From the NCBI GenBank assembly GCA_963797095.1, contig CAWCNY010000005.1, forward strand, positions 416,001 to 480,000: a stretch of 64,000 bases of DNA, in the 5' to 3' direction. Made by a program: the position numbers and the translations under genes. The notes under the pieces are model-generated. The model did not search any database and was not told the origin of the DNA. It saw only the letters and a program-made list of their open reading frames with translations. This document shows, one piece after another, positions 9,493 through 54,176 of the stretch; position 1 is the stretch's first letter; each line of letters begins with the position of its first letter. The DNA is from an uncultured Chloroflexia bacterium. Lineage in GTDB: Bacteria > Chloroflexota > Chloroflexia > QHBQ01 > JADMIH01.

Positions 9493-9632
9493 GTGATACG
9501 TGAATTGTTACAGCCTTCGTATGTAGTAGGGGAAACAATTAATACTCTAAGCGCACGCAGCATGTATCTCGCTGCATATAGAGCAGTAAGCAATAATCAC
9601 GTATCACATATTGCGTACCACGAAAATTCACG
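9493..9632. repeat. Period-7 repeat (ATCACGT type) with inverted upstream arm
   Basis: ATCACGT ATCACAT ATTGCGT ACCACGA at 9596-9623; GTGATACGTGA (9493-9503) is the reverse complement of 9597-9607. Confidence 0.6.
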
Positions 9633-9661
9633 TTACACCTTAGCCGCAAGGAGGATCTAGC

Positions 9662-10225
9662 GTGGACACAGACCAGGGAACATACATCGACGATGAGGAA
9701 GCGGAAGAAGAGCCTGCAAAACGAGGTCGTGGATGCCTCCCGTGGGTTATCATACTCGTTATCATCGTTGTGGGTGGACTGGCTACAGCGCCGCTTATCG
9801 GCCAGATAATCTTTCGTGAGGAAACCCCCTTGCCTGGGGAGGAATTCATCACAGACCTGGGGCTGCGCCTGCTGGCGGTTCCGAGTGACTATACCGACCG
9901 CAAGATGCCGGGCGGCACTGACCCCGCCACGGTACAATCGATGGCAGATAAGGGCAAAGAGCTGTTCGGGGTGGAATGCGCTGTGTGCCACGGCCAGGAT
10001 GGTAGGAGTGGCGTAGGCTGGGGTATCGCCATGTACCCGCCGCCCGCCAATCTGCACGCCGACCGCACGCAGACCAAGACTGATGGGCAGCTATTCTGGG
10101 AAATAGCTCATGGGATCAACCTCACAGGTATGCCCGCTTTCGGCAAAGACTTCCCAGGTGGTTATCACACGGATGAGGAGATCTGGTATCTGATCGCATA
10201 TATCCGCACTCTCAAGAACCAGTAA
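9662..10225 (+). CDS. Membrane-anchored monoheme c-type cytochrome
   Basis: One TM; CAVCH heme motif; MYPPPANL, DGQLFW.I.HGI..TGMPAFG; AGGAGG SD before GTG. Confidence 0.9.
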   Translation: MDTDQGTYIDDEEAEEEPAKRGRGCLPWVIILVIIVVGGLATAPLIGQIIFREETPLPGEEFITDLGLRLLAVPSDYTDRKMPGGTDPATVQSMADKGKELFGVECAVCHGQDGRSGVGWGIAMYPPPANLHADRTQTKTDGQLFWEIAHGINLTGMPAFGKDFPGGYHTDEEIWYLIAYIRTLKNQ

Positions 10226-10247
10226 CTCAAGCCCCTGAGCTCGCAAC

Positions 10248-10290
10248 AACCGAGTGGGAGGTCTCAACCGGAGGCTTCCACTCGGTTTTG
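10248..10290 (+). terminator. Intrinsic terminator
   Basis: AACCGAGTGGGAGGTCTC / GAGGCTTCCACTCGGTT stem followed by TTTTG. Confidence 0.7.
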
Positions 10291-10321
10291 ATTATTACAA
10301 TAGGGCAAAGGAGGCGATTGC

Positions 10322-10813
10322 ATGGACAAGATTTTCATTTTCGGTGACATTGATTATGTTACGATTGCTCGTGTCTTTCTGGCATTCGTGCTTGGAGGTG
10401 TCGTGGGGTTCGAGCGCGAGCGGGTGCACCGGCCAGCGGGGCTACGCACCCACATGCTCGTGGCGGCGGGGGCCGCGTGCTTCACGGTGGCCTCGATCTA
10501 CGGGTTCGATGGTCTTGGTACGTCACGCGACCCTGCACGGCTGGCGGCGCAGATCGTGACCGGCATTGGTTTCCTGGGGGCCGGGGCGATATTTCGCACA
10601 CGCTCGACTGTGCGCGGCTTGACTACAGCTTCGAGTATCTGGATAACGGCGGCCATCGGTATTGTTGCGGGCCTGGGTATGCTGACTCTTGCGGTTTTTA
10701 CCACGATTATTACGTGGTTCGCCCTTTATGTGCTCAAAGGGTTGGAGTTGCGAGAGGTGAGGGGCCGCGACAAGGGAGAGCCGTTCCAGACACAGCACGA
10801 TCAGGTGAATTGA
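10322..10813 (+). CDS. MgtC/SapB family membrane protein
   Basis: GFERE...AGLRTHMLV, DPARLAAQIVTGIGFLGAG, GLTTASSIW. Confidence 0.92.
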   Translation: MDKIFIFGDIDYVTIARVFLAFVLGGVVGFERERVHRPAGLRTHMLVAAGAACFTVASIYGFDGLGTSRDPARLAAQIVTGIGFLGAGAIFRTRSTVRGLTTASSIWITAAIGIVAGLGMLTLAVFTTIITWFALYVLKGLELREVRGRDKGEPFQTQHDQVN

Positions 10814-10873
10814 TGGTACAAGAGTTGAAGTCAGTTTGAGGTTTAGAGTGCTTTTATTCTGGGGAGATATTGC

Positions 10874-11380
10874 TTGAAAGCGGTCAGGATGATCGACAAT
10901 GGCATGATGGGAACCCGCAGGGTGGCGCGAGTGCGCAGGTTTGCTGAGGTTATGTTTGGGGTCACTTTGTGCTTGCTTCTGCTTGCCGGGTGCCTTGAAC
11001 AGGTACAGACGACACGTATTGCCGGGGGTGCACTGAGCAACTTCTTTGTTCACCTGGAAAAAGGAGAGCTTGACGACGCGATGGCCTATTTCGCGCCGGG
11101 GCTTGTTACGCCCTCCGCCGAGTTGGATTCGTCGGTTCAGGATGCCTCCAACGCCATCAGAAAGTATGAGTTCAGACAGGTGAAGTCCAGTGAGGAAGAC
11201 CTGGACAATGGCGAGAAGCAGGTAACATTGAAGGGGCAGGATCGCCAACGCACGCCTGATGGACAACCCACGCCCCGCCCCGATGATGGCTGGCAGGACA
11301 CTGACATCATTACCGCTCGCATGGTGGAGATAGGATCGGGGTGGCGGCTGCTCGATTTTGAGTTGTTGTGCTGCCGGTAG
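10874..11380 (+). CDS. Hypothetical lipoprotein (NTF2-like fold possible)
   Basis: LLLLAGC lipobox; C-terminal GWRLLD; start codon uncertain. Confidence 0.65.
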   Translation: MKAVRMIDNGMMGTRRVARVRRFAEVMFGVTLCLLLLAGCLEQVQTTRIAGGALSNFFVHLEKGELDDAMAYFAPGLVTPSAELDSSVQDASNAIRKYEFRQVKSSEEDLDNGEKQVTLKGQDRQRTPDGQPTPRPDDGWQDTDIITARMVEIGSGWRLLDFELLCCR

Positions 11381-11463
11381 TCGGTATTTCCTGCTTCCTA
11401 CAATCGTCAATAGTCCCTACCGACTACCGACTACCGACTACCGACTACCGACTACCGACTACC
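11375..11463. repeat. Heptamer tandem repeat (CTACCGA)x6.7 with inverted arm
   Basis: Six perfect CTACCGA units at 11417-11458 plus CTACC; inverted arm CGGTAGTCGGTA at 11375-11386 contains the TAG stop; lies between convergent genes. Confidence 0.95.
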
Positions 11464-11466
11464 CTA

Positions 11467-12030
11467 TCAATAGTAATCGGTATAAAGAAGCAAGCCAAAG
11501 AGGCCGAGGTTGGCGAGGATCAACGTCAGGTCGCGCTTCTGGTCGTCGGTGAGGTCGCCTTGCCGCCAGCGTCCTGCCAGTTGAGCGAAGTAGAGCAGCA
11601 TGTACGAGAACTGGGTTGCCATATAGATGAAGTGGTAATAACCGAGCAGATTCCAGCGCCAGGGGCGAGGCATGGTCCAGTTGACGAGGCCGCCCCGCCC
11701 CTGTGCTACATGGAATAAGAGAGACACCGCGCTACCACCCAGGATCGGCAGAAGGGCGGTTCGCCCGCTGAGCTTGGGCTGCCAGCGCACGAATGACCTA
11801 ATTATCAGCACATTGATAAATGGCAGGATGATCCCATCGCCGAATATGGCTGAACGAAAGGTGAGCGTTGGCCTGTACTGCTTGATAAGTGGATTGCCTG
11901 TAATAAGCATCCAGACGTTCGTACCGCCCGACACTCCCAGGGCCGCCGCGAACGTGGCCAGCGCGGTGGCGATCAGCAACGCAGGATCCTGGGGATTTTG
12001 GATTTTGGACTTTGGATTTTGGATTTTCAT
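11467..12030 (-). CDS. Hypothetical integral membrane protein (N-terminus encoded by a heptamer repeat)
   Basis: About 5 TM segments; ATG 12030 is followed directly by the repeat-encoded KIQNPKSKIQNP. Confidence 0.7.
   Translation of the reverse strand: MKIQNPKSKIQNPQDPALLIATALATFAAALGVSGGTNVWMLITGNPLIKQYRPTLTFRSAIFGDGIILPFINVLIIRSFVRWQPKLSGRTALLPILGGSAVSLLFHVAQGRGGLVNWTMPRPWRWNLLGYYHFIYMATQFSYMLLYFAQLAGRWRQGDLTDDQKRDLTLILANLGLFGLLLYTDYY
11993..12027. repeat. Heptamer tandem repeat (GGATTTT)x5, CCAAAAT type on the minus strand
   Basis: GGATTTT GGATTTT GGACTTT GGATTTT GGATTTT adjacent to CAT 12028-12030. Confidence 0.9.
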
Positions 12031-12126
12031 TTTGCTCAGGTAATCTATCGCATTTCGGCTGGCGGTCGTCCGGTGCCTGGTCTCATGATATAATATCGTA
12101 CCGCTGAAAAAGTAAGGAGCACAAAC

Positions 12127-13320: not shown

Positions 13321-13338
13321 CCGACCGGTTGGTATCCA
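13320..13338 (+). promoter_or_regulatory. Putative TetR-type operator palindrome overlapping an extended -10
   Basis: GCCGACCGGTTGGT is 12/14 to the palindrome ACCGACCGGTCGGT; a related site is at 17901-17914. Confidence 0.35.
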
Positions 13339-13367
13339 AATTTGCGATGCAGAATGGGGAGGGTTCG

Positions 13368-13601
13368 ATGAAACGATTGTCTTTTGTGGTGCTAGCGATC
13401 GTCGCGGTGGTTGTGATCGTCCGGGTGGCGAAGGAATCTGCGCGTGCAAGGGAATGGCTTGTGGACCCCCGGTGGAAGGAAGCGGTAGAAAATTACAATA
13501 AGGCCCGCGAGCGCCATGCTCCGCAGGTTGAGATAGAGCAAAGAAAGCGCGAGATCGGTCAGATAGTTAAGCAACTGCGGGCGGAACAAGCCCAAAGATA
13601 G
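13368..13601 (+). CDS. Small hypothetical membrane protein
   Basis: GGAGG SD, ATG 13368, N-terminal TM, charged helical tail. Confidence 0.65.
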   Translation: MKRLSFVVLAIVAVVVIVRVAKESARAREWLVDPRWKEAVENYNKARERHAPQVEIEQRKREIGQIVKQLRAEQAQR

Positions 13602-13633
13602 AAAACAAAAGGAACGAGGATAGCAAAATACAT

Positions 13634-14770: not shown

Positions 14771-14954
14771 GAGCGGCCCGGCTGCCGCCGGTTGTTTTGG
14801 GCGCGGCGATTGAAGTGGGGAAGGGAACGGAAATTGCTCGGAATGATGGGATTCCGTCACATTTCCTGGGCGTGTTCCGTCATAGTGGTGGCTGGGCAAG
14901 CCTGGCCGAGGAGCGGTAATGAGGTAATAAGTAAAGAGTGAGGCTAAAGCCAAA

Positions 14955-15404: not shown

Positions 15405-15418
15405 AGAGAAATAAGAGA

Positions 15419-20467: not shown

Positions 20468-20524
20468 TCCAAGTTCCAAGTTCCTGGTTCCATGCTCTAA
20501 CTCAGGAACCAGGAACCAGGAACC
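20468..20524. repeat. Heptamer inverted arms (TCCAAGT/TCCTGGT versus CAGGAAC)
   Basis: TCCAAGT TCCAAGT TCCTGGT TCC (20468-20491) and CAGGAAC x3 (20503-20523) are complementary arms. Confidence 0.85.
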
Positions 20525-21072: not shown

Positions 21073-21108
21073 AAAACGGAGGCATGAGTGCATGCCTCCG
21101 TCCTTTAT
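21073..21108. terminator. Bidirectional intrinsic terminator
   Basis: ACGGAGGCATG-agtg-CATGCCTCCGT with A- and T-rich flanks between convergent genes. Confidence 0.8.
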
Positions 21109-21363: not shown

Positions 21364-21407
21364 CTTCCGCCTCCTTTCCGGTTCATTATAGCATAGCGGT
21401 CAGGAAC

Positions 21408-21449
21408 GAGTAAGGAGTGACGAGTGACGAGTGACGAGTGACGAGGGAT
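21408..21449. repeat. Heptamer tandem repeat (GAGTGAC)x4 plus 2 degenerate units
   Basis: GAGTAAG (GAGTGAC)4 GAGGGAT between the thrS stop and the ytxH promoter. Confidence 0.9.
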
Positions 21450-21469: not shown

Positions 21470-23314
21470 TTATAGTTCTGCGGACCTCTTGGCGATCCGG
21501 TCTTTCACCAGGGCATAGAAGTCGGCTAGAGGCATGTTGTTTTGCTGAGAGCCATCTCGCTTGCGCAGGGACACCGCGTTCTCTTGCATTTCGCGCGCGC
21601 CTACTACCAGCATGTAGGGTATCTTCATTAGCTGCGCGGCCCTGATCTTGGCGTTCATGCGGTCGTTGCCCAGGTCGGCTTCGGCCCGCACGTCCATATC
21701 TTTGAGTTCCTGGGCGATACGTGCTGCGTACTCGTTGTGAGCTTCGGCGACCGGGATCACTTTTACCTGGTCGGGTGAGAGCCACACAGGGAAGTTGCCC
21801 GCATAATGCTCAAGCAAGAATCCGACCATGCGCTCGTGCGTGCCGAGGGGGGCGCGGTGGATGCAGAGGGGCGTCTCGTCTTTGCCCTCATGGTTCGTGA
21901 AGACTAAGTCGAAGCGGGGAGGGACGGCAAAGTCTACCTGGTTCGTAGCAAGGGAGAACTCTCGACCTATGGCGCTCCAGATCTGAACATCTATCTTGGG
22001 GCCGTAGAAGGCTGCTTCGTCGGCCACCTCTACGAAGGGGATGCCGCCGTCTTGCATGGCGCGGCGCACCATATCCTCCGTATGGAGCCACAGGCGGTCG
22101 TTATCCACGTACTTCTTGCCGAGGCCCTTCTTGTCGTGCGTGCTGAAGCGCATTACGTACTTTTCGATGCCGAAAATCTCGAAGTATTTCAGATAGAGGT
22201 CGATCACTCCCAGGAACTCCTGCTCGAATTGCTCCTCCGAGCAATAGATGTGAGCATCGTTCATCTGCATGGAGCGGACGCGCATCAGGCCGAACAACTC
22301 CCCGCTCTTTTCGTAGCGATAGCACGTGCCGTATTCGGCGAGGCGCAGGGGCAGGTCGCGCCAGCTTCTCGTTTTGGCTGCGAAGATCTTGTGGTGGAAG
22401 GGGCAGTTCATCGGCTTCATGTAGTAGCGCACGCCTTCCAATTCCATAGGCGGGTACATACTCTCAGAGTAGTAGGGGAGATGGCCCGACCGTAGGAAAA
22501 GGGCTTCCTTCGAGAGGTGAGGGGACCTAACCCGCTCGTAACCGGCTTTGCGCTCCATTTCTTTGCCGAGATTCTCAAGCTCATCAATAATGATAGCGCC
22601 GCGAGGCTGCCACAAGGGGAGACCTGGGCCTACTTCGTCATCGAAGATGAAGATTTCAAGCTCGCGCCCAAGCTTGCGATGGTCGCGCTTCTTGGCCTCT
22701 TCGAGATATTGGAGGTGAGCCTGCAGCTCCTTCTTGTTTGACCATGACGTGCCGTAGATGCGCTGGAGCATGGGGTTGTGCTCGTCGCCGCGCCAGTAAG
22801 CTCCTGCTACGCTCTGTAGCTCGAAGGCATCGGGAGGCACCTGGCCCGTGTTCTCAACATGCGGCCCACGACACAAGTCTTCGAACGTGTCGTGCTTGTA
22901 CGTGCTGATCACCACATCTCCCTGGACTTCGTTGCCGTATTCGTCTACCTCGCCCTTGGCAAGCCCATCGATTAGCTCCAACTTGTAAGGTTGGTCGGCG
23001 AAAAGTTGGCGTGCCTCGTCGGCGCTCACCTGGCGATAAACGAATGGATACTTGCCCGCGATGATCTGGCGCATGCGCTTGGCGATCTTTTCGAGGTCGT
23101 CGGGCTGGAATGTACGCGGCTTGCCGTGTTCGTCGCGGCCCAGGTCGAAGTCGTAGTAGAAGCCGTTCTCTATAGGTGGGCCGATGGCGATCTTGGCCTC
23201 CGGGTAAAGCTCAAGCACCGCCTCGGCCATAATGTGCGCGGCGCTGTGCCTGATCTTATAGAGTTGGTCCTTTTTTTCCTGGCTGACCTCTCCAGGCATC
23301 TCAATTGCAACCAT
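21470..23314 (-). CDS. thrS: Threonine--tRNA ligase
   Basis: RHSAAHIMA, DLCRGPH, RDHRKLG, KPMNCP, FYGPKID, IHRAPLG; real start ATG 23314 after an AGGAGG SD. Confidence 0.98.
   Translation of the reverse strand: MVAIEMPGEVSQEKKDQLYKIRHSAAHIMAEAVLELYPEAKIAIGPPIENGFYYDFDLGRDEHGKPRTFQPDDLEKIAKRMRQIIAGKYPFVYRQVSADEARQLFADQPYKLELIDGLAKGEVDEYGNEVQGDVVISTYKHDTFEDLCRGPHVENTGQVPPDAFELQSVAGAYWRGDEHNPMLQRIYGTSWSNKKELQAHLQYLEEAKKRDHRKLGRELEIFIFDDEVGPGLPLWQPRGAIIIDELENLGKEMERKAGYERVRSPHLSKEALFLRSGHLPYYSESMYPPMELEGVRYYMKPMNCPFHHKIFAAKTRSWRDLPLRLAEYGTCYRYEKSGELFGLMRVRSMQMNDAHIYCSEEQFEQEFLGVIDLYLKYFEIFGIEKYVMRFSTHDKKGLGKKYVDNDRLWLHTEDMVRRAMQDGGIPFVEVADEAAFYGPKIDVQIWSAIGREFSLATNQVDFAVPPRFDLVFTNHEGKDETPLCIHRAPLGTHERMVGFLLEHYAGNFPVWLSPDQVKVIPVAEAHNEYAARIAQELKDMDVRAEADLGNDRMNAKIRAAQLMKIPYMLVVGAREMQENAVSLRKRDGSQQNNMPLADFYALVKDRIAKRSAEL
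23226..23281. repeat. Direct repeat copy 1 (thrS codons ~12-30)
   Basis: GCCATAATGTGCGCGGCGCTGTGCCTGATCTTATAGAGTTGGTCC(T7)CCTG; identical to 24782-24835 except for T-run length. Confidence 0.95.
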
Positions 23315-23326
23315 GTCAATCCTCCT

Positions 23327-23390
23327 ATTTTGGATTTTGGATCTTGGATTTTGGATTTTGGTCTTCAATCCGCAATCTATAATCCAAAAT
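23327..23390. repeat. Heptamer inverted arms (ATTTTGG)x5 / AATCCAA type in the thrS leader
   Basis: ATTTTGG ATTTTGG ATCTTGG ATTTTGG ATTTTGG, 5-nt loop, AATCCGC AATCTAT AATCCAA AAT; lies between the T-box terminator and the SD. Confidence 0.9.
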
Positions 23391-23662
23391 AAAAAGCCCC
23401 TCGCCCATACGGGACGAGAGGTTTGGCTCACGTGGTTCCACCCGAGTTTGACGCTGTCCTTCGACGATTAGTTGAAAAGGTGAGGCGTCCTCGTTTTGCC
23501 TGTAACGGTGCTATCCGGCATCGCATACTTGCCTTGTTGGCTTTGGGCGATGCAGCTATCAGGTGGTTTTCGCCGGGGGTTGGGTTGGGAGGCTCTCAGC
23601 CTGGGGCCTCTCCTCTCTGATTTCCCTGTGGCCGGGTACTCGTCCTGGTCGGTGCTTTTGGG
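23386..23662 (-). promoter_or_regulatory. T-box riboswitch, Thr specifier
   Basis: AGTA, AGAGA and GCTGAGA boxes; specifier loop GAAAACCA with ACC (Thr) at 23567-23565; T-box GGGTGGAACCACG at 23443-23431; terminator CCTCTCGTCCC-GTAT-GGGCGAGGGG-CTTTTT. Confidence 0.93.
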
Positions 23663-26935: not shown

Positions 26936-27004
26936 GGAAGAAGGACGCACGACGAAAGACGAAGGTGCTAGATGCCACCGTCCTTCGTCTTTCGGCCTTC
27001 TTCC
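26936..27004. repeat. Heptamer inverted arms (GACGAAG / CTTCGTC type)
   Basis: GAAGAAG GACGCAC GACGAAA GACGAAG G versus CGTC CTTCGTC TTTCGGC CTTCTTC; the right arm encodes the ScpB C-terminus. Confidence 0.8.
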
Positions 27005-29271: not shown

Positions 29272-29455
29272 GGTGGATCTCCCTTTAAACACACTAACAT
29301 ATCATGCCGGGTCGCTGTACAGGTGGCAAGATGTGTGCCATGAGAGATGCCAGGTGAGACTACCAATCTTGCAAATCTACGAAGGAAGTAAGGGTGCTCT
29401 AAAGTGCTATAATAGCCCTACGTTGCTCGTTGGGCTTCTCGCGAGGGGATTCGTT

Positions 29456-35536: not shown

Positions 35537-35578
35537 AGTAGTCGGTTCTTCTACTCCGACTATCGACTACCGACTACT
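35537..35578. repeat. Heptamer inverted arms (CCGACTA type)
   Basis: AGTAGTCGGT (35537-35546) versus CCGACTA TCGACTA CCGACTA CT; same unit type as 11417. Confidence 0.85.
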
Positions 35579-37381: not shown

Positions 37382-37500
37382 GAGTGCAGAATGCGGAATG
37401 GCATATGAGATACGATTACAAATATGTAGCTCTTCGCCCGACGCATCATGCGCCTGATCGTACAGCGTGCATTCCGCACTCCACGCTCCGCATTTCGCAC
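37382..37500. repeat. Heptamer inverted arms (GAATGCG / ATTCCGC type)
   Basis: GAGTGCA GAATGCG GAATG after the fakA stop; ATTCCGC ACTCCAC GCTCCGC ATTTCGC AC before the degV start. Confidence 0.8.
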
Positions 37501-37506
37501 TAACCA

Positions 37507-40383: not shown

Positions 40384-40574
40384 GAATACTTCTCGATGAG
40401 TGTGTGCCGCGTCCGCTCAGGAATGAACTGCCTGGACATGAGGTTAGAACTGTCCGGCAAATGGGCTGGTTGGGAATAGAGAATGGAGATCTGCTTCGGC
40501 TGGCCGGGACGCTAGCGGAATCCGAACAGAGCGCGGGGAAGCAGGAAACCGAGCAGCGGATGTGCTACAATTGA
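40380..40574 (+). pseudogene. Truncated DUF5615 PIN-like toxin
   Basis: MRILLDEC...MGW.G..NG.LL matches the intact paralog at 50356 for about 42 aa, then diverges; lacks FD.LLT.D. Confidence 0.8.
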
Positions 40575-40590
40575 CTGACCTGCAACACCC

Positions 40591-40632
40591 GTTCTATATT
40601 CCACATTCTACATCACTCACCCCGCACTCCAT
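40591..40632. repeat. Degenerate heptamer tract (ATTCCAC type) abutting the recG start
   Basis: GTTCTAT ATTCCAC ATTCTAC ATCACTC ACCCCGC ACTCCAT then ATG 40633. Confidence 0.65.
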
Positions 40633-43241: not shown

Positions 43242-43530
43242 TTAAGAATTCGGTGTTACTGAGTTTGCAGGCCCCAGAATATCGTCTACAGCCAGCGCCA
43301 ATTCGCGCACTGCATGGGCGACAATATATTCACCCAGGCCTAGCTCTTTCTGCTTCCGGTACTCTCCTTGCTTGGGCTCCAAGTATACATGTACCTTTTC
43401 CCCTTCGAGATCGACCACCCAAACCTCTGCAATTGCCGCCCGCGCATATAGCGGCACTTTAGTTTCATGGTCATAGCCAATCGATGTATCCGACACTTCT
43501 ACAATCAGGTGAACATCAGCCGGACCACCA
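43242..43530 (-). pseudogene. Uma2/DUF820 endonuclease-like gene fragment (C-terminal half)
   Basis: PADVHLIVEVSDTSIGYD..TKVPLYARAAIAEVWVVDL; the N-terminal ELI.G...H and PEPD regions are absent. Confidence 0.75.
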
Positions 43531-43630
43531 GAAACTACTCGCCGCCGAGTTTTGCCACGCAGCCCACAGCCTGTTATGATTTTATCACACAAGACCTAAC
43601 AGAGAGCCAGGGTAGTAAGCAAAGAGCAAG

Positions 43631-44203
43631 ATGCGTGTAATCTCCGGCACAGCCAAAGGACGCCAGCTTAAAGGTCCGCCAGGCGTGGGCACCCGCCCCA
43701 TGACCGACCGCCTCAAGACCTCGCTTTTCGATACGCTCGTTCCGTACGGTATCGCGGGCGCGCGAGTGCTCGACCTGTATGCGGGTAGCGGCTCGCTTGG
43801 CATCGAGATGCTGTCACGTGGGGCCGAATGGTGCGACTTCGTGGAGCAGAGTGCCCCTGTTTGCCGGGTAATCCGCGACAACCTGGAGATCACTCGATTG
43901 GCAGATAAGGGGCGCGTGCACCAGATGGCTGTAGCCCGATTTCTGAATAGTATGGGGTCCGTGCCCGACCTGCCGCCTTATGATATAATATCGCTCGACC
44001 CACCTTATGCAGACCCGGAGATTAGGAGTACCCTCGACACGATAGCGCGCTGGCCGAAGCTCGCCCCACATGGATTGGTGGTTATCGGCCACGCCACCCA
44101 GGTGGCGCTGGCGGACGATTATGGCGATGGGCATATCCGGCGGTTGAAGCACCGGGTAATGGGTGGCTCGGCATTCTCCATCTACGAGGTAACGGACGAG
44201 TGA
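43631..44203 (+). CDS. rsmD: 16S rRNA m2G966 methyltransferase
   Basis: MRVISGTAKGR.L, RPMTDR, LDLYAGSGSLGIE, DPPY; located between recG and coaD. Confidence 0.92.
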   Translation: MRVISGTAKGRQLKGPPGVGTRPMTDRLKTSLFDTLVPYGIAGARVLDLYAGSGSLGIEMLSRGAEWCDFVEQSAPVCRVIRDNLEITRLADKGRVHQMAVARFLNSMGSVPDLPPYDIISLDPPYADPEIRSTLDTIARWPKLAPHGLVVIGHATQVALADDYGDGHIRRLKHRVMGGSAFSIYEVTDE

Positions 44204-44280
44204 CGAATAATATGCGATACCTGACCACCTTCGGTGGCCTACCTCAAACTCCCTCGGCTTCCGTCGTTCGTCCTTCGTCC
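44194..44280. repeat. Heptamer inverted arms (GACGAAG / CTTCGTC type)
   Basis: GGACGAGTGACGAA (contains the rsmD stop) versus TTCCGTC GTTCGTC CTTCGTC C before the coaD start. Confidence 0.75.
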
Positions 44281-44288
44281 AACAAAAC

Positions 44289-44828: not shown

Positions 44829-44892
44829 GGGGTCGGGCAACCGCGATCGGGGTGGTCTTGCGAATACCCCGATCGCGGTTCCCAATTCCTGA
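44829..44892. repeat. Inverted repeat with period-7 arms (GGGGTCG / CCCCGAT type)
   Basis: 15-bp perfect stem AACCGCGATCGGGGT / ACCCCGATCGCGGTT; flanks GGGGTCG and CCCAATT CCTGA. Confidence 0.7.
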
Positions 44893-45648: not shown

Positions 45649-47982
45649 TTGTTTGGAAACAGATCCCTTCCTCGTATCCTACTAATTGCCTGGCTGGCTT
45701 TCCTGCTGATCGCTGCCTTAGCTGCGCATTTCCTGGCGGGCGAGACAGATATATCTGTCAACAAGGACGGAGCCCGAATCTGGGCCGAAGTGCGAGGCAC
45801 CCAACTTGATGTGCCCACAAGCACTCTTCAGCTAGATCAGCTAGCCCAAATCAAGCTTCCGTCACTCGCCGAGCTAAAGATCGAGCCGCCTTCAAGCTCG
45901 CTCTACTGGCAGCCTGCCCAGCAAAACACCTTTTATGCTATCGGCGTGGCGGGCGAATGGCTGCAACAGACCTTGAGACCGCCATCCGAGTGGGTATCCG
46001 CCCGGGTAACTTATCAGAGCGGCAACTACAAACTAACTGCCGGCCGGGCGCTGGCGCTGGTCCCACTGGAGAGCAGCCCCGGAAATGGGGTGGTGCTGCT
46101 GGTGCGCCCTGAGCGCTCACTGATCCAGTGGTGGACATTAGAGAACGGCCAACCGCAAGACCAGTTGGTCGATACCAATTACCGGCCATCAGGCTTTGTC
46201 TCTGCGGGCGACCTTCTATCGGAGGTGGCCCTGATAGCGCTGGCTGCCGGGCTACTTTGCATGTTTGCCTGGCTTGTGGTCGTCTTCCTGGTGGCTATTT
46301 ACCGCCGCTCCATTGGGCCACTCTCGGCCACAAATGCGTTCCGAAGCCCACTGATCGGCGCGAACCTTGATACTACTCCTTCGACTTCAGCAACCACACC
46401 TACAGACGATGCACAAGTCCAGAGCAGAAGTTCCGTCCTCATGAGGATACGCCCCTCATACGTTGCGCTGGCCTTTTTCGCGCTTGGAACGGCGATCACT
46501 TCGGGGGCTTGCCTCCTTGTACTGGATGGCATTCCCCACGTACAGGACAGTGTCGCCTACCTGTTCCAGGGCAAGATATTCGCGCATTTGACCTCGTGGG
46601 CACCTGAGCCTCCTTCGCCTGAGTTCTTCCAGAACTCCTATATAGAATTCTTCCAGGGTCGTTGGTTCACCAAATACCCACCCGGCTATCCTTTGATGCT
46701 TACTTTGGGGGTGTGGGCCGGCCTCCCCTGGCTGATCAACGCTCTTAGCGCGGGTGCGGCTCTCGCCTTCATCTATGCCACCGGCCTGCGGATGTTCAAC
46801 ACGCACGTAGCCATGTGGGCGGCCCTGTTCGGGTTGATCTCGCCCTGGGTGATCTTCATGTCCGGCTCTTACATGTCGCACCCGACCACCATGATGTGGG
46901 TTGCCCTTTTCATATATGGGCTTGTGCAGCTACGGCTCTCTTATGCTCAGGCTAAACCTTCGCGCTTTCTCACTACCCCCTCAAGATGGGGCCTCCTGTC
47001 CGGATTCGCTATCGGTATGGCCTTTATCACCCGCGAATGGACCGCATTGGGTATCGGAGTTGGCGCTGCTATCTGGGGCATCGGTGACATAGCCTCGGCG
47101 GGTCGCCGTGCGCTTCGGAAACTGGTCCCATATATCATGATGGTAGCGGGTTTCGTGCCGCCTTTCCTCTTCCTCCTCTTTGAGAACCACGAACTGACCG
47201 GCGATTGGTTCCTCCTCCCCCAGGACCTCGTAGGCTCGTACGATCAACCAGGCTTTGGACCCGGCCACGGTAGCGAGATCGGCCATACTCCCGCGATGGG
47301 CCTCTACAACGCCCTGGTTTACTTGCGCACCCTGGCGATGGTCTTCAACGGCTGGCCTGCCCCCTTCGCCCTCGCACCGATCTTCCTGGGGCTTTTCGCA
47401 TGGATAATCGATAGACGTGACAAGCTGGCATGGGACCTGCTCCTGTGGCTTTCTCTGGCGGGATTGCTCGTGGCCTACTTTGCGTGGTGGTCCTCTACTA
47501 CCATCTTCGGCCCGCGCTACTGGTACGAGGGCATGCCCTTCCTCCTCTTGATGGCGGGGCGAGGCATGGATCTGCTTGGCCGCGCGGCAGCGCATTTATT
47601 TAGCGGGATTTGGGCACAGCGCGTGCGATGGGTCGTGCCCGCCACCATACTTGTCTTGTTCTCCCTCTACACTCTCACGCAAACCATGCCTGAGCAGGTG
47701 CAGGAGTACACCAACTATAACGATGTCAGCGCCGAATCTGTGAATGCCGTCAGCAAGGCTGGGCTAACAAACGCCCTGATATTCGTGGCACTCGACCCCG
47801 ACCAGAAGAACCGCGACTACGGCAAGGTCTTCTTCGCGAACGACCCCTTCCTGGAAGGCAATATCGTATACGTGCGCGACCTGGGGCTCGACGCCAACAC
47901 CTACTACGCCAGTCTCTACCCATCACGCCAACCCTACTATCTGCCCCTCACCGGCCCGCCCAAGCCCGGGGTCAGCCCCTAG
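45649..47982 (+). CDS. ArnT/GT39-like (GT-C) membrane glycosyltransferase
   Basis: PHVQDSVAY, KYPPGYP, SYMSHP, GPRYWYE; about 12 TM. Confidence 0.8.
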   Translation: MFGNRSLPRILLIAWLAFLLIAALAAHFLAGETDISVNKDGARIWAEVRGTQLDVPTSTLQLDQLAQIKLPSLAELKIEPPSSSLYWQPAQQNTFYAIGVAGEWLQQTLRPPSEWVSARVTYQSGNYKLTAGRALALVPLESSPGNGVVLLVRPERSLIQWWTLENGQPQDQLVDTNYRPSGFVSAGDLLSEVALIALAAGLLCMFAWLVVVFLVAIYRRSIGPLSATNAFRSPLIGANLDTTPSTSATTPTDDAQVQSRSSVLMRIRPSYVALAFFALGTAITSGACLLVLDGIPHVQDSVAYLFQGKIFAHLTSWAPEPPSPEFFQNSYIEFFQGRWFTKYPPGYPLMLTLGVWAGLPWLINALSAGAALAFIYATGLRMFNTHVAMWAALFGLISPWVIFMSGSYMSHPTTMMWVALFIYGLVQLRLSYAQAKPSRFLTTPSRWGLLSGFAIGMAFITREWTALGIGVGAAIWGIGDIASAGRRALRKLVPYIMMVAGFVPPFLFLLFENHELTGDWFLLPQDLVGSYDQPGFGPGHGSEIGHTPAMGLYNALVYLRTLAMVFNGWPAPFALAPIFLGLFAWIIDRRDKLAWDLLLWLSLAGLLVAYFAWWSSTTIFGPRYWYEGMPFLLLMAGRGMDLLGRAAAHLFSGIWAQRVRWVVPATILVLFSLYTLTQTMPEQVQEYTNYNDVSAESVNAVSKAGLTNALIFVALDPDQKNRDYGKVFFANDPFLEGNIVYVRDLGLDANTYYASLYPSRQPYYLPLTGPPKPGVSP

Positions 47983-48036
47983 CCGTTTGCATGTGTTATA
48001 ATCTCCCAGACCTATGTGGCCGGAGATTCTTGCATA

Positions 48037-48987
48037 ATGACCCAGAAGGCAACTAGATCGCAGGGCACAGACGACCGCGAGCAATTGAATTTACGCCCCG
48101 GTATTTCGGTATTTTTCCCGGCATATAACGATGCAGGCACCATTGCCTCTATGGTGCTTGCTGCTCTTCGCACCTGCGCCCGGCTCACCGATGACTACGA
48201 GGTGATAGTGGTCGAAAACGGCAGCGACGACTATACGGTCGAAGTCCTCGAAGACCTGGCGAATACCTACGACCACCTGCGCATCTTCAGCCACCGCGAA
48301 GCTCTCGGCTATGGCGGCGCGCTCCAGAAGGGCTTCAAAGAGGCCACCAAGGAACTAGTTTTCTACACCGATGGCGACGCCCAATATGACCCGCATGAGC
48401 TTGCCCTCATGTATGCTGCCTTGCGCCCTGAGGTGGACGTAGTGCAGGGCTATAAGATTGCCCGCAACGACCCCGTCTTTCGCAAGATCATCGGGCGCAC
48501 CTATCACTGGATCGTCAAGATCGCTTTCGGCCTACCCATACGCGACACAGACTGCGACTTTCGCCTGATCCGCAAGTCGGCCCTAGCCCGCTTTGACCTC
48601 AAGTCAAAGACGGGCACAATCCCCCTTGAATTGGTCAAGAAGCTCACAGACTCCGGCGCGGTCTTCGCCGAAGTACCCGTACACCACTACCACCGCGTGT
48701 ACGGGCGGTCGCAGTTCTTCAACTTCCCACGCCTCTGGGCTACGGGCGTCAATCTAATCCAACTCTGGATCGAGTTGGTCCTCATACCTCTGATCACCAA
48801 GCGCAAGCCCGTCAAAAACGTCAAACCTCGCACCCATAGCGTGCCGGTCAACCCATCGCTCGCCTACCAGACCGAGGCTCAGGCACGTGCCCTGACAAAC
48901 GGCGTCCCAACGGAAGATATCGCCGCCGAACAGCTGCCTATCCAAAATCCGGAATCCAGCACCCAAAATAGAGTGGAGGAAAGATAG
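48037..48987 (+). CDS. GT2 glycosyltransferase (polyprenol-phosphate sugar synthase-like)
   Basis: FFPAYND, VVENGSDD, GYGGAL..G, YTDGDAQYDP, DTDCDFRL; TGtTATAAT at 47994-48002. Confidence 0.9.
   Translation: MTQKATRSQGTDDREQLNLRPGISVFFPAYNDAGTIASMVLAALRTCARLTDDYEVIVVENGSDDYTVEVLEDLANTYDHLRIFSHREALGYGGALQKGFKEATKELVFYTDGDAQYDPHELALMYAALRPEVDVVQGYKIARNDPVFRKIIGRTYHWIVKIAFGLPIRDTDCDFRLIRKSALARFDLKSKTGTIPLELVKKLTDSGAVFAEVPVHHYHRVYGRSQFFNFPRLWATGVNLIQLWIELVLIPLITKRKPVKNVKPRTHSVPVNPSLAYQTEAQARALTNGVPTEDIAAEQLPIQNPESSTQNRVEER
48940..48969. repeat. Degenerate heptamer tract (ATCCAAA type) in the GT2 C-terminus
   Basis: ATCCAAA ATCCGGA ATCCAGC ACCCAAA AT just before the SD of the next gene. Confidence 0.65.
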
Positions 48988-50069: not shown

Positions 50070-50128
50070 ACGGGGAATGGCTAACAGATGCTGTGCTATA
50101 ATCAAAGCATAGCCGAATGGAGGGTGCT

Positions 50129-50359
50129 ATGCTGGACACACAGGACATTTCCCAACTGATCAATCGCGACCCGGAGATAATGTCCGGTACACCGGTCTTT
50201 ATGGGCACGCGCGTACCTGTCCAAACATTATTCGACTGGCTGGAAGATGGCGAGTATTCGCTTGATGATTTCCTCGATAACTTCCCTAGTGTGTCACGTG
50301 AGCAAGCCGTTGCTGTACTCGAAGTGTACAGAAAATTGCTCCTAGCAGAGGTGCAATGA
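50129..50359 (+). CDS. DUF433 antitoxin-like protein
   Basis: DPEIMSGTPVFMGTRVPV..LFDWLE; own TGcTATAAT at 50094-50102 flanked by ATGCT/AGCAT. Confidence 0.92.
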   Translation: MLDTQDISQLINRDPEIMSGTPVFMGTRVPVQTLFDWLEDGEYSLDDFLDNFPSVSREQAVAVLEVYRKLLLAEVQ

Positions 50360-50673
50360 GGATACTGCTGGACGAATGCCTACCAAGACTGTTGAAACGA
50401 GACCTCGCCGATCATCAAGTTGCAACTGTTACGGAAATGGGCTGGTCAGGCATGATGAACGGCAAGTTGCTCACAATAGCTGAAGAGCACTTTGACATAT
50501 TGCTCACAGTTGACAGCGGAATAGAGCATCAACAGAACCTCAAGAACAAACAGATAGCGATCGTGATATTGGACGCCCCTAATAAGGTCCGCTATCTGCA
50601 ATTGCTTGTGCCTGCTCTGCTTGATGCGCTACCTACGATCCAGCCAGGAACCATTGTGCACATTAGCGAATGA
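50356..50673 (+). CDS. DUF5615 PIN-like toxin
   Basis: MRILLDECLP, MGWSG..NGKLL, FDILLTVD, QQNL; ATGA overlap with DUF433. Confidence 0.9.
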   Translation: MRILLDECLPRLLKRDLADHQVATVTEMGWSGMMNGKLLTIAEEHFDILLTVDSGIEHQQNLKNKQIAIVILDAPNKVRYLQLLVPALLDALPTIQPGTIVHISE

Positions 50674-50735
50674 TATTGAGGTGATACCTTTGAGAGTAGG
50701 GCCGCTGCGTCGTGCGCAGTGACTTGACTAGCAGC

Positions 50736-51854: not shown

Positions 51855-51949
51855 GGGAATCTTGAAGCAACTTGGGAGCGCAAAGAGCCTCGAACGCGAA
51901 ATATCTCCGGTGCGCCGCCTGGTACGCCGATTTCCATACTGGAACCACT

Positions 51950-52447
51950 ATGAAACAATCTGATCCGCCCCACGAGCCGCCGAAGAACCAAATAGGTGCT
52001 GGTGCGCTTTTTCTCGATGCGTCAGGCAATATACTCATCGTCAAACCATCGTATAGAGGAGGGTAGCTGTTGCCGGGCGGCATAGTCGAAGCAGGCGAAT
52101 CGCCCTTGCAAGCGTGTATCCGCGAGGTTGCCGAGGAGGTGGGCATTACACTCCATATCGAGCAACTCCTGTGCGTAGACTATTCTCACCAATCACGCGG
52201 AAAACCGGAAAGCCTCCAATTCGTCTTCTATGGTGGAGTGTTCCCCGATCAGACGCGCATTAACCTACCAAACGGCGAGCTAATTGCATATTACTTCGTT
52301 CCCTTCGAACAAGCTCGTACTATGCTGACTGCCAGGTCGGCGCGCCGGATCGCTCGTTGCATTGACGCGTTGAACGACGGCACGACCCTCTACCTTGAGA
52401 ACGGCGAAGATGCATTTCCCGGTTCGCCCAAAACAAACAGTGTATAA
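51950..52447 (+). pseudogene. NUDIX hydrolase interrupted by an in-frame TAG
   Basis: AGALFLD..GNILIVKPSYRGG*LLPGGIVEAGES...REVAEEVG; TAG at 52064-52066 where Trp is expected. Confidence 0.85.
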
Positions 52448-52455
52448 TTACACAC

Positions 52456-52932
52456 ATGGAACCGGAAGCCCATTTCGCGATTGCCGAGGCCGAAGAAGAC
52501 CGGCATCAAGCCCAAACAGCCGCTAAACAGAGAGGAGCTTTAAAGATGGACGCCGCCTGGTGGAGCACGTTTGGCCTGCTGATGATCGCCATGTGCCTGA
52601 CCGTTACCGGCGAACTGCTGCTCAAGTCAGGCATGAACCGCCACGGCGAGTTGAACGTCAGTTTCTCAACTCTTATCCCAACTGCGGTCAAGCTCTTTAG
52701 CAGCCCGTGGGTGGTGGGTGGCTTCGTCTTTGTGTTCAGTGGCGCCCTCTTCTGGCTGGCCGTGCTTTCTCGCTGGCCCCTCTCAATGGCCTATCCTCTC
52801 CTCTCAATAAGCTATATCATCGGCATCATCGCCTCGGTGCTCTTCCTGGGCGAAAAAGTCAACACTATCCAGGTGGTGGGTGTGCTAGTGATCATCCTCG
52901 GAGTCTTCCTGATCAGCAGGAGCAATGGATGA
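52456..52932 (+). CDS. EamA/SMR small transporter (ArnE/ArnF flippase-like)
   Basis: GELLLKSGM, WLAVLSR.PLSMAYPLLS, LFLGEKV; 4 TM. Confidence 0.85.
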   Translation: MEPEAHFAIAEAEEDRHQAQTAAKQRGALKMDAAWWSTFGLLMIAMCLTVTGELLLKSGMNRHGELNVSFSTLIPTAVKLFSSPWVVGGFVFVFSGALFWLAVLSRWPLSMAYPLLSISYIIGIIASVLFLGEKVNTIQVVGVLVIILGVFLISRSNG

Positions 52933-54053
52933 ACGTGGACGAAGAACGAACGACCAGGGACCCAGGATCGCAGCCCTCGGTCTCACCCACCGCTGAGCCG
53001 CGCCCTATCGCGGTCGCGCCGCACACGGGCAGGATGGCTCACCATTCGCTCAAAGAGATCCAGATGGCAACAGGCACAGTACCTCCCCAACCACAGCCTG
53101 CCCCTGTGGAAGAAAAGTCAGACGAATACACCCTTTCGGTAGTGATCCCGGCGTATAACGAGGGCGACTCGGTTGACCGTGTCATCTACAAGATCCGCGA
53201 GCTACGCCCCCTGGCCGAGATCATCGTGGTGGACGACGGCTCACGCGACGACACAGCAGATGCGGCCCGCCGGGCAGGCGCGCGCGTAATACGGCACCCT
53301 TACAACAAGGGCAACGGCGCTGCCGTCAAGACAGGCTTGCGCGCCGCCCGCGGCGATGTGGTACTCCTGCTCGACGCCGACGGTCAGCACCCCCCTGAGG
53401 ACATAAAGCGGGTGCTTGCACCGATAGGCGAATATGACCTGGTGGTGGGTGCGCGCACGCGCCAATCGCAAAGCGCCTTCATCCGCGATGTTGGCAACTC
53501 CATATTCAACAGCCTGGCAAGCTATCTGGCAGGGAGGAGCATCCCCGATCTGACATCAGGCTTCCGCGCCATGAAACGCGATATGATCATGGAGTTCATC
53601 CATCTCTTGCCCAACCTCTACTCCTACCCTACTACCAGCACCCTGGCCTTCCTTAAGGCAGGTTACAATGTTGAGTTTGTGCCTATAGTCGCTCGCAAGG
53701 GCACCGGCCGCAGCAACACCAAGATCTTCCGCGACGGCACACGCGCCATCGTGATCATCCTGCGCATTATCACCCTGTTCGCGCCCATGAAGATATTTCT
53801 GCCGTTGAGCATAATTCTGTTCCTCGGCGGCGTGGTCTACGGCCTCGCCAACATCTTCCTGGCGGGCATCAGCCGCATCCCCAACGGCTCTGTGCTCCTC
53901 ATCCTGAGCAGCCTCTTCATCTTCCTCTTCGGCCTCATCTCCGAGCAGATCGCCGCCATGCGCTTCGAGTCCAGCCAGAGGCCACGCGCCACGGGCGACG
54001 GGCCATGGTCCATTGAAGATGGACGTACAAATACCGGCAAGGATCAAAAATAG
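52929..54053 (+). CDS. GT2 glycosyltransferase with two C-terminal TM helices (ArnC/GtrB-like)
   Basis: VVIPAYNE, VVDDGSRD, NKGNGAAVKTG, LDADGQHPP, DLTSGFRA; ATGA overlap with the upstream gene. Confidence 0.9.
   Translation: MNVDEERTTRDPGSQPSVSPTAEPRPIAVAPHTGRMAHHSLKEIQMATGTVPPQPQPAPVEEKSDEYTLSVVIPAYNEGDSVDRVIYKIRELRPLAEIIVVDDGSRDDTADAARRAGARVIRHPYNKGNGAAVKTGLRAARGDVVLLLDADGQHPPEDIKRVLAPIGEYDLVVGARTRQSQSAFIRDVGNSIFNSLASYLAGRSIPDLTSGFRAMKRDMIMEFIHLLPNLYSYPTTSTLAFLKAGYNVEFVPIVARKGTGRSNTKIFRDGTRAIVIILRIITLFAPMKIFLPLSIILFLGGVVYGLANIFLAGISRIPNGSVLLILSSLFIFLFGLISEQIAAMRFESSQRPRATGDGPWSIEDGRTNTGKDQK
52938..52972. repeat. Degenerate heptamer tract (GACGAAG type)
   Basis: GACGAAG AACGAAC GACCAGG GACCCAG GATCGCA right after the stop at 52932. 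Confidence 0.55.
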
Positions 54054-54089
54054 CCGAAGCAAAACCTCTGCGCCTCCGCGGCAAGACAT

Positions 54090-54176
54090 ATTCTGCATTC
54101 CGCACCTGGAATTCCGCACTCCGCATTTCTAATGACTTAATCCGAAATCCGAAATCCGAAATCCGAAATCCGAAAT
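54090..54176. repeat. Two adjacent heptamer tracts: ATTCCGC type x6 and (AATCCGA)x5
   Basis: ATTCTGC ATTCCGC ACCTGGA ATTCCGC ACTCCGC ATTTCTA (54090-54131); five perfect AATCCGA (54139-54173). Confidence 0.92.

Follow-up and report, generated by a model that had tools for sequence, protein, structure and literature searches.

Heptanucleotide repeat arrays between stop and start codons in a 64-kb window of an uncultured Chloroflexia genome

The basis of the preference for seven-base repeat units, and the role of the repeats built from them, have been a question since the first reports of STRR (short tandemly repeated repetitive) sequences in cyanobacteria and a survey of 2007. The same question is raised here by a stretch of 64,000 nucleotides from an uncultured Chloroflexia bacterium (contig CAWCNY010000005.1, positions 416,001 to 480,000; the window from here on), in which tracts of 7-nt units lie at gene junctions, many of them as pairs of complementary arms. 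A first-pass annotation of this DNA had described a window-wide system of such repeats with one period and one polarity, and had offered as its cause either a dedicated writing mechanism or selection for RNA hairpins. We find that the repeats are real and well marked, that bacterial repeats of their kind have been described before, and that the lineage which carries them here has been little studied. With moderate confidence, we regard the tracts as transcribed heptanucleotide microsatellites of the slippage type that have been kept because they act in cis as RNA leaders and as stem-loops between cistrons.

Period 7 is the sole enriched tandem period of the window. Tandem Repeats Finder (TRF) returned 30 rows for it, of which 14 have period 7 and one more, of period 21, falls on the array at 23327; the remaining 15 have periods of 8-12 and 15, all with 2.6 copies or fewer. 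A strict scan, which asked for at least 3 copies at periods 2-15 and took 30 order-3 Markov simulations as its null, found six arrays with a period of 7; periods 5, 6 and 8-15 had none, and the simulations gave 0.0 arrays at each period of 6 or more. A scan by lag, with a criterion of 12 matches in 14, returned ten arrays at period 7, where 0.25 would be expected, and each of the other periods between 4 and 12 gave 0-1. Across three thresholds, 8, 10 and 16 arrays of period 7 were observed against 0.0, 0.2 and 1.35 expected. Period 7 is thus enriched over periods 5, 8 and 10 within the window, and the first-pass condition for refuting the system, a lack of this enrichment, does not hold here.

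The list of tracts given at first pass, with 17 starts, survives in part. Eleven starts were flagged as tandem repeats of period 7 by TRF or the scans (11375/11417, 11993, 20468, 21408, 23327, 26936/26979, 35537/35556, 40591, 44194/44262, 53981 and 54139), and 9493 was flagged at a relaxed threshold alone; the other five (37382, 44829, 48940, 52938 and 54090) received no tandem flag in any scan. Three of these five, at 37382, 48940 and 54090, have exact words of 11-12 bases in common with flagged arrays, and the tract at 54090 is in phase with that at 54139. We reject 44829 as a tandem array, since it is a plain 18-bp hairpin, and 52938 is without support as a repeat tract. Nine pairs of inverted arms were confirmed (9484/9597, 11375/11417, 20468/20503, 23327/23367, 26936/26979, 35538/35556, 37382/37470, 44192/44259 and 44836/44866). 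The junctions (J) are listed below by coordinates and strand, with the z-score of the predicted fold against shuffled sequences; ORF stands for open reading frame and SD for Shine-Dalgarno sequence.

J1, 9484..9506, plus strand: G-rich 5' arm, found as an inverted repeat, 6 nt past the TGA (9475-9477) of the upstream ORF.
J1, 9595..9640, plus strand: C-rich 3' arm of degenerate heptamers (5 G, 13 C), where the relaxed scan flags 9582-9611; fold z = -3.55.
J1 downstream: SD AAGGAGG at 9648-9654, just after the C arm, then the cytochrome c gene from GTG 9662.
J2, 11375..11386, no strand assigned: short arm that includes the TAG stop of the lipoprotein-like ORF 10874-11380 (plus strand).
J2, 11417..11463, no strand assigned: perfect array, (CTACCGA) x 6.7 (TRF score 94, 100% matches), between convergent genes, the minus-strand ORF having its stop at 11467; fold z = -5.2 (plus) and -6.1 (minus).
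J3, 11993..12027, minus strand: array that in the mRNA reads (AAAATCC) x 5 (TRF), at or within the 5' end of the membrane-protein ORF that ends at 11467.
J4, 20468..20524, plus strand: paired arrays, (GTTCCAA/GTTCCTG) and then (GGAACCA) x 3 (TRF and inverted repeat), in the thiolase-to-DinB spacer, from 1 nt past the stop to 15 nt ahead of the ATG; fold z = -4.74, G/C polarity ambiguous.
J5, 21406..21445, minus strand: unpaired, C-rich array that in the mRNA reads (CTCGTCA) x about 5 (TRF), with the thrS stop (21470) on one side and the TATAAT, SD and ATG of a 79-aa ORF (21363-21124) on the other; array region unstructured in the fold, junction z 0.09.
J6, 23327..23361, minus strand: array that in the mRNA reads (CCAAAAT) x 5 (TRF), immediately 5' of the SD AGGAGG and the thrS ATG (23316).
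J6, 23367..23391, minus strand: G-rich partner arm of degenerate heptamers, immediately 3' of the T-box terminator; fold z = -3.15.
thrS T-box leader, 23407..23661, minus strand: RF00230, 81.6 bits, E = 3.6e-18, with a promoter-like, consensus-like site at 23714-23686 and its terminator at 23421-23397; the score lies under the gathering score of 93, which is why a default Rfam search missed it.
J7, 26936..27004, no strand assigned: hairpin with arms 26936-26965 and 26979-27004 (inverted repeat, TRF), flanked by a class-V aminotransferase-family gene and scpB, which converge; the scpB ORF crosses the right arm and has its stop within the loop; fold z = -3.3 (plus) and -5.3 (minus).
J8, 35538..35577, plus strand: 8-nt G arm (35538-35545) 3 nt past the Asp23 stop, and array (CCGACTA) x 3.3 (35556-35577; TRF) ending 15 nt ahead of the fakA ATG, with the same unit as J2; fold weak, z = -1.5.
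J9, 37382..37402, plus strand: G-rich arm, found as an inverted repeat, beginning 10 nt past the fakA TAA.
J9, 37470..37504, plus strand: C-rich arm, five degenerate CAyTCCG-type units, 2 nt ahead of the degV ATG; fold z = -1.6, with a 12-nt identity to J16.
J10, 40576..40632, plus strand: the entire recG leader, eight 7-nt units (TRF 40592), lying between the recG ATG (40633) and an extended -10 box that is conserved (TGCTACAAT, 40563-40571); unstructured, fold -0.7 kcal/mol.
J11, 44192..44207, plus strand: G-rich arm overlapping the rsmD TGA (44201-44203), with a 12-nt identity to the J5 unit.
J11, 44259..44280, plus strand: C-rich arm, (CGTCCTT-type) x 3 (TRF 44262), 8 nt ahead of the coaD ATG; fold z = -1.9.
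J12, 44829..44883, plus strand: G-first hairpin with arms 44836-44853 and 44866-44883, directly past the coaD TAA; non-tandem (no TRF row), fold -45.7 kcal/mol, z = -5.9.
J13, 48942..48969, plus strand: four degenerate units with CCAAAAT at each end, unflagged by TRF, inside the final codons of a GT2 gene and immediately 5' of the next gene's SD, GGAGG; 11/11 identity with the J3 and J6 arrays.
J15, 53980..54005, plus strand: weak period-7 tract (TRF, 78% matches) in the portion of a GT2 gene that codes for the C-terminus, probably outside the repeat system.
J16, 54090..54176, plus strand: lattice of 12.4 units, ATTCCGC-type and then (AATCCGA) x 5.4 (TRF 54139, 100% matches), downstream of the GT2 stop (54051-54053) and in the leader of an LPG-synthase-like gene; unstructured, z = -0.6.

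The position of these arrays is strongly constrained. Eight of the ten strict arrays are clearly non-coding, one lies at a disputed 5' end of an ORF (11993) and one is coding (53981). Counted as nine of ten outside coding sequence, in a window of which 10.7% is non-coding and about 89% coding (stop-to-stop ORFs), this gives a p of about 2e-8; as 7 cannot be divided by 3, selection by itself would lead one to expect such confinement. The finer geometry concerns the two ends of the spacer. Relative to the end of the stop codon that precedes them, G-rich arms start between 12 nt ahead and 10 nt past, while C-rich arms end 1-21 nt ahead of the next start (J1, J4, J6, J8, J9, J10, J11 and J13), any SD falling in between. 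The arms keep to the extremes of the spacer even when it is long, as in J1 (184 nt, with the G arm 6 nt from the stop) and J9 (135 nt, with the G arm 10 nt past the stop and the C arm 2 nt ahead of the start). The order stop, G arm, C arm, start that the first-pass annotation had described therefore holds within the window. By reading, no SD sequence precedes recG, degV or coaD, and the array reaches up to the ATG. We infer that the repeats of J6 are transcribed as part of the thrS 5' untranslated region (UTR), because they lie between the T-box terminator and the thrS SD.

In predicted folding, six of the nine pairs far surpass their shuffled counterparts. The paired junctions J1, J2, J4, J6, J7 and J12 reach z values of -3.2 to -6.1 against shuffled sequences, and the single leaders of J5, J10 and J16 are predicted to be unstructured. 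We considered intrinsic (Rho-independent) terminators as an identity for the pairs and rejected it: none of the nine was flagged by a terminator scan, which takes loops of 3-8 nt only and did flag the terminators at 21076 and of the T-box, and no T run follows the arms by reading. By the same reading, the G arms of the window contain runs of GG only.

The one polarity claimed at first pass has two components, which fare differently. Of the two orders that are possible, all eight pairs that can be assigned show the G arm first (p = 0.004 by sign test; J4 is ambiguous), but a G-first hairpin reads alike on both strands and its order is for this reason uninformative on the direction of transcription. 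Since hairpins without repeats are G-first too, we take the order as a property of hairpins here in general and reject it as a signature of the repeats; the T-box terminator is C-first. The second component is the composition of the start-side array. At ten of ten co-directional junctions (J1, J3, J5, J6, J8, J9, J10, J11, J13 and J16) the longer and purer array next to the start has more C than G on the mRNA (p = 0.002, the background on coding strands being 0.54). Taken together, the C arms have a G:C of 42:144 and contain 2 ATG, GTG or TTG start triplets in 387 positions, where 18.2 would be expected.

The units themselves are less diverse than first described. The nine unit types of the first-pass annotation reduce to five clusters among 14 arrays, and its phrase 'without a conserved sequence' is not supported. 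Identical consensus units occur at unlinked junctions (J2 and J8; J3, J6 and J13; J7 and J11), and seven of the 14 arrays form one network connected by steps of 1-2 bases (AAAATCC, AATCCGA, ATTCCGC, CACTCCG, CATTCCA); shuffling within units matched the observed similarity in 6 of 500 trials. Outside the arrays, an all-against-all blastn comparison found the spacer interiors of the 14 junctions unrelated, similarity being confined to the heptamers. The purity of the arrays ranges from perfect to heavily degenerate. The arms of J12 led us to look for octamer palindromes of the cyanobacterial type as well, of which the window holds one match against 2.65 expected.

How the arrays change can be followed at two places. 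The arms of J7 differ by exactly one 7-nt unit, the left being the longer, and the recG leader could be compared with that of the nearest RecG relative in a species-level genome collection, a metagenome-assembled genome (MAG) labelled Chloroflexia (L001; 91% RecG identity, 3.4-kb contig). This is the one orthologous junction that the comparison covers. Both have the extended -10 box and the start in conserved form, and the DNA further upstream is unalignable; the leader of the window has about eight degenerate units and that of L001 has 10.9 purer ones, both of the ATTCCGC/ATTCCAC family. The check in a related genome that had been suggested at first pass thus shows, for the recG leader, a unit family that is kept while its copy number differs. 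Because J7 and the recG leader both differ in unit number, the arrays are shown to gain and lose whole 7-nt units in place. At J16, two unit families follow each other over 12.4 units without a break in the 7-nt phase, as would fit units that diverged in place and then expanded anew. The earlier statement that the tracts are hard to explain by plain slippage is not supported, in view of the one-unit difference between arms, the change of copy number at recG, the excess of period 7 in unrelated phyla and the published abundance of heptanucleotide repeats, both described below.

As an observation apart, the J3 (11993-12027) and J6 (23327-23361) arrays, both of the (GGATTTT) type and unlinked, share 94% identity over 33 nt; the copies number about five in either array, and a unit close to its middle shows a T-to-C variant. 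The likeness could be coincidence, the effect of an interruption that stabilises an array, or the copying of a whole array.

Period 7 also stands out in a comparison set of 80 RecG loci (1.26 Mb). It accounts for 68 arrays there, against 10, 16, 7 and 4 at periods 5, 8, 10 and 11, while periods 6, 9 and 12 (46, 45 and 56 arrays) are mostly of coding type; A/T-type arrays from low-GC genomes were kept in these counts, and the 'arrays' of low-GC Clostridia such as AAAAAAT are probably A/T low complexity. The occurrence is patchy. Arrays are found in Kouleothrix, Roseiflexaceae, Herpetosiphonaceae, Thermoflexus and two 'Chloroflexota' MAGs, and beyond this phylum in one Armatimonadota, one Nitrospiraceae, some Clostridia and one Saganbacteria locus; they are absent from 118 kb of Anaerolineales/Anaerolineae and 87 kb of Dehalococcoidia at RecG loci. 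The AAAATCC unit recurs in the Thermoflexus, Saganbacteria and Clostridia loci. When genes in the Chloroflexota loci were mapped by G+C at third codon positions (GC3), G-rich arrays began -1 to +8 nt from stops (twice each in L035 and L049, and in L017) and C-rich arrays preceded starts (twice in L035, and in L057, L001 and L048), with L037 and position 6175 of L057 as exceptions.

Two of these loci deserve description in their own right. In L035 (14129-16484; a Chloroflexota MAG), G-rich arrays of the GGGGAGT type alternate with C-rich arrays between co-directional genes; one G array of about 80 nt is placed at a stop codon, and its C partner follows some 380 nt downstream, leaving 2 nt to the next start. 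By reading, the G arms of L035 have runs of 3-4 G that could form quadruplexes, unlike those of the window. L037 (65-359; a Thermoflexus sp. MAG) carries a very long (GGATTTT/AGATTTT)n array of 11 plus 17 copies, interrupted by a run of N.

Based on these results, we suggest the following course of events, every functional step of which we infer. The 7-nt period would come from a general slippage bias for units of this length, and selection would purge the arrays from coding sequence, 7 being no multiple of 3; no dedicated writing enzyme would be needed. Unpaired arrays would act as leaders free of structure and of start codons, which can replace the SD sequence, as might be the case for recG, degV and coaD. 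Paired arms would form a stem-loop that closes nearly the whole spacer and ties the downstream start to upstream translation, a ribosome that stops in or beside the G arm melting the stem. The stem-loop might also serve double-strand RNase processing, or be a stability element. The proposal at first pass that hairpins in the RNA are selected for at cistron boundaries is reasonable in this respect and agrees with what has been proposed for the STRR sequences (PMC2670836) and shown for the hairpin of Haemophilus influenzae hmw1A (PMC12721329).

Several previously described repeats are comparable to those of the window. The cyanobacterial STRR sequences are 7-bp repeats that form hairpins between cistrons such as hupS and hupL, where transcript stability or translational coupling has been proposed for them (PMC2670836), and the heptamers of Nostoc lie within 30-100 nt of starts (10.1101/2022.06.06.494920). 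The repeats of the window resemble them in their 7-bp tandem units, the few families per genome, the location in spacers near starts and the intercistronic hairpins (PMC2670836, 10.1101/2022.06.06.494920, PMC4692102). They are not STRR sequences in the strict sense of a cyanobacterial host, since the phylum here is Chloroflexota: after the Chloroflexia relative L001, with RecG identities of 57% or less in every other relative, the next best matches are Chloroflexota/Anaerolineales. What is added here to the STRR descriptions is that the C-richness of the mRNA strand and the abutment on stops and starts are quantified.

The window does belong among heptameric simple sequence repeats (SSRs) and STRR-like repeats in a broader sense, with its excess of period 7, its dispersed and small repertoire of units, its mostly intergenic arrays near starts and, at the recG leader, a copy number that varies between relatives. 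According to papers that cite it, the 2007 survey (Mrazek, Guo and Shah) found heptanucleotides to be the most abundant class of long SSR in most genomes and proposed polymerase slippage for them (PMC4692102, PMC4679880); the GGGAATC arrays of Xanthomonas are an example (PMC4692102). Chloroflexus aurantiacus has 22 satellites, (GATAGRA)n, from one heptamer, and this family is given as the clearest case of species-specific short-repeat satellites that were probably transposed, so that Chloroflexi are already represented among genomes rich in heptamer satellites (PMC6749651). Our arrays are like the heptameric long SSRs in the excess over non-triplet periods, the intergenic location, the variation between close relatives and the occasional inverted pairs. 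They are unlike them in that the reports mostly describe one dominant unit per genome, whereas at least five clusters occur here in 64 kb, and in that most arrays here lie in stop-to-start hairpins. Compared with the contingency SSRs of phase variation, the flanking genes here are housekeeping genes, and length differs between two species at one locus. In the literature searched, supplements aside, we found no description of this stop/start geometry in Chloroflexota.

Two further systems come close to one or the other half of the proposed role. In marine Beggiatoaceae, TAACTGA arrays lie a few nt upstream of starts in forward orientation, are predicted to be unstructured and apparently stand in for the SD sequence, housekeeping genes included (MacGregor 2015, PMC4679880). 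The start-proximal arrays of the window at housekeeping genes, predicted to be unstructured and apparently SD-replacing, are alike in all these respects; they differ from the Beggiatoaceae repeats, which have a single unit, one inverted repeat in 170 sets and no paired arms at stops (PMC4679880). In H. influenzae hmw1A, the (ATCTTTC)n array is transcribed and, together with a complementary arm rich in G, forms a long and imperfect hairpin in the 5' UTR that is cut by RNase III and acts in cis on expression, which drops as the repeat lengthens (PMC12721329). The window likewise combines a heptamer array with a complementary arm in what is predicted to be a long imperfect stem, and at J6 probably a transcribed one; the hmw1A case is a single phase-variable adhesin locus of a pathogen with at least 11 repeats, whereas the window has many housekeeping junctions with 3-7 copies.

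Other classes were discarded. The repeats are like the repetitive extragenic palindromic sequences (REP), bacterial interspersed mosaic elements (BIME) and miniature inverted-repeat transposable elements (MITEs) in placing hairpins in intercistronic and 3' spacers, and unlike them in having a tandem 7-nt substructure, no conserved element beyond the heptamers and no transposase seen in the window. Mobile palindromes of these kinds are rejected, as junctions are similar only in their heptamer arrays and no transposase family was found among the window ORFs. An array of clustered regularly interspaced short palindromic repeats (CRISPR) is rejected as well, the units being contiguous and of 7 nt, against repeats of about 24-48 nt with unique spacers.

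A number of observations weigh against the reading as retained leaders and stem-loops. The pairs at J8, J9 and J11 fold only weakly better than shuffled sequences (z -1.5 to -1.9), and the four strongest non-repeat intergenic hairpins of the window are all G-first (4/4). Pure slippage leaves unexplained both the identical units at unlinked junctions and the same unit in both arms, and turnover was compared at a single orthologous junction, the recG leader. Across the 80 loci, automated polarity is weak and not significant, with more C than G before starts in 17 cases against 12 and more G than C after stops in 13 against 8; this analysis used longest-ORF gene calls, which are noisy in GC-rich DNA and in the window picked the spurious minus-strand ORFs 10523-11410 and 53556-54119. 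In the Thermoflexus locus L037, the array just upstream of a gene start is in G-rich orientation, opposite to the rule of the window. C-first pairs occur in the Saganbacteria and Clostridia loci, and automated pairs outside Chloroflexota are mixed (L075 and L077 are C-first), the detection, by 12-mers with at most one mismatch, having missed several curated pairs. Finally, the order of the hmw1A precedent is the opposite one, with the repeats 5' and the G-rich arm 3', and its authors argue against simple polymerase slippage (PMC12721329).

The rival that survives best, which we consider unlikely all the same, is a neutral by-product: a bias of replication or repair would make 7-nt units slip more, functionless arrays would persist in spacers, and their polarity would reflect selection against G-rich, start-bearing, SD-like sequence near starts. 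The patchy excess of period 7 over unrelated phyla, reported in many bacteria (PMC4692102, PMC4679880), speaks for it, and the range from perfect to degenerate arrays resembles the life cycle of a microsatellite. In a window that is so densely coding, moreover, any element in a spacer is necessarily near a stop or a start. A neutral origin does not explain why complementary arms of the same unit occur at nine junctions, why arms stand at both extremes of long spacers, why identical units recur at unlinked loci, or why two species keep an array that separates the recG start from a conserved -10 box while the flanks have diverged.

Distinctly less probable, in our view, is that the arrays are a protein-binding platform, with polymeric sites for a single-strand-binding protein of 7-nt footprint (a cold-shock-domain or S1-like oligonucleotide-binding (OB) fold) that sets both the period and the repertoire of units. 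The recurrence of a few unit families speaks for it, with an A(A/T)TCC(A/G)(A/C)-like unit in 7 of 14 arrays and AAAATCC again in the Thermoflexus, Saganbacteria and Clostridia loci, as does the position of arrays next to starts that by reading lack an SD. There is also a report of Bacillus subtilis CspB binding to direct heptamer repeats, with one protein per heptamer (PMC4679880). The same source gives the specificity of cold-shock proteins as weak, one genome has here at least five unrelated unit clusters, and Pfam and NCBIfam scans of the window yielded no candidate protein.

Equally doubtful is a broader version, in which the heptamer lattice is an RNA-level code shared by several phyla (Chloroflexota, cyanobacteria, Armatimonadota, Nitrospirota and others). 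Its C-rich arrays would be polymeric landing pads for an OB-fold protein of 7-nt footprint or for the 30S subunit in SD-independent initiation, the G arm at the upstream stop would gate the pad and open upon ribosome termination, and transcription and processing of the hairpin would drive the gain and loss of repeats as for hmw1A. If this were true, period, polarity and sequence turnover would follow from one RNA-centred mechanism and not from slippage of DNA polymerase.

More doubtful still is that the arrays are tuning knobs, in which copy-number changes of transcribed arrays would give a heritable and reversible rheostat of expression as for hmw1A, repeat change perhaps needing transcription and RNase III. 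The copy number of the recG leader does differ between two close relatives, and at hmw1A expression falls with repeat length, with hairpin, transcription and RNase III required (PMC12721329); the genes concerned here are however housekeeping genes (thrS, recG, coaD, fakA/degV) and not surface or contingency genes, and many arrays are too degenerate for slippage. The dedicated writer or mobile element proposed at first pass, a templated polymerase, recombinase or transposase laying down heptamer arrays or hairpin scars at gene boundaries, is very improbable: the recurrence of a unit at loci that are not linked, the likeness of the J3 and J6 arrays with their shared mid-array variant and the probable transposition of short-repeat satellites put forward in the prokaryotic-satellite paper (PMC6749651) would suit it, but the dissimilar spacer interiors show that the junctions are not copies of one element, in-place indels of units account for the variation seen, no target-site duplications were found by reading, and Pfam and NCBIfam scans of the window ORFs revealed no transposase, reverse transcriptase or Y1-transposase-like family, 64 kb being a weak test.

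The genomic setting is otherwise ordinary. The window has a G+C content of 58% and by Pfam carries housekeeping genes of a Chloroflexota-type organism (thrS, recG, fakA, two degV, rsmD, coaD, scpB, acyl-CoA dehydrogenases, thiolase and a polysaccharide cluster). An Rfam search of the window at gathering thresholds returned tRNA-Leu alone, and no known RNA family covers the tracts. GC skew tracks gene orientation throughout, with no single switch of the replication type; on the sense strand it is +0.19 at codon position 1, -0.13 at position 2 and -0.14 at position 3. Among unannotated ORFs (4642-7425, 45649-47982 and 8752-9477 included), Pfam and NCBIfam gave nothing relevant; the two large ones, 4642-7425 (minus strand, 927 aa) and 45649-47982 (plus strand, 777 aa), have coding-type GC3 and match no family in either database. 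Between recG and rsmD, a 116-aa ORF (43242-43592, minus strand) matches the Uma2 putative endonuclease family over profile positions 87-171 of 172 only, and appears to be a truncated copy. At 50117-50673 (plus strand), within a sugar-modification cluster, genes of the DUF433 and DUF5615 families overlap in an arrangement which we take to resemble small toxin-antitoxin-like pairs, and 29117-32260 (plus strand) encodes a signalling protein of 1047 aa with adenylate/guanylate cyclase and NB-ARC/AAA ATPase domains and TPR repeats.

The repeats also skew ORF calls. The scpB ORF and a GT2 ORF end in repeat-encoded tails (26968-27004, minus strand, and 48942-48987, plus strand), and the longest thrS ORF (21470-23431, minus strand) reads through the repeats, with a start 115 nt upstream of the SD-led ATG. 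Annotation is affected, as ORF callers over-extended the thrS start and gave scpB and the GT2 gene these tails, and long arrays like that of L037 may break assemblies.

For the question of why seven bases are preferred and what the repeats do, the window adds a clean and quantified case from a phylum other than the cyanobacteria, in which arrays span from stop to start, the mRNA is C-rich next to the start and the array sometimes appears to replace the ribosome-binding site; at one junction, the heptamers lie between a T-box riboswitch and its gene. We suggest that the value of this geometry lies in the testable predictions it yields, on translational coupling, on RNase processing and on SD-free initiation, for which cultivable repeat-bearing relatives are at hand in Chloroflexus, Roseiflexus, Herpetosiphon, Kouleothrix and Thermoflexus.

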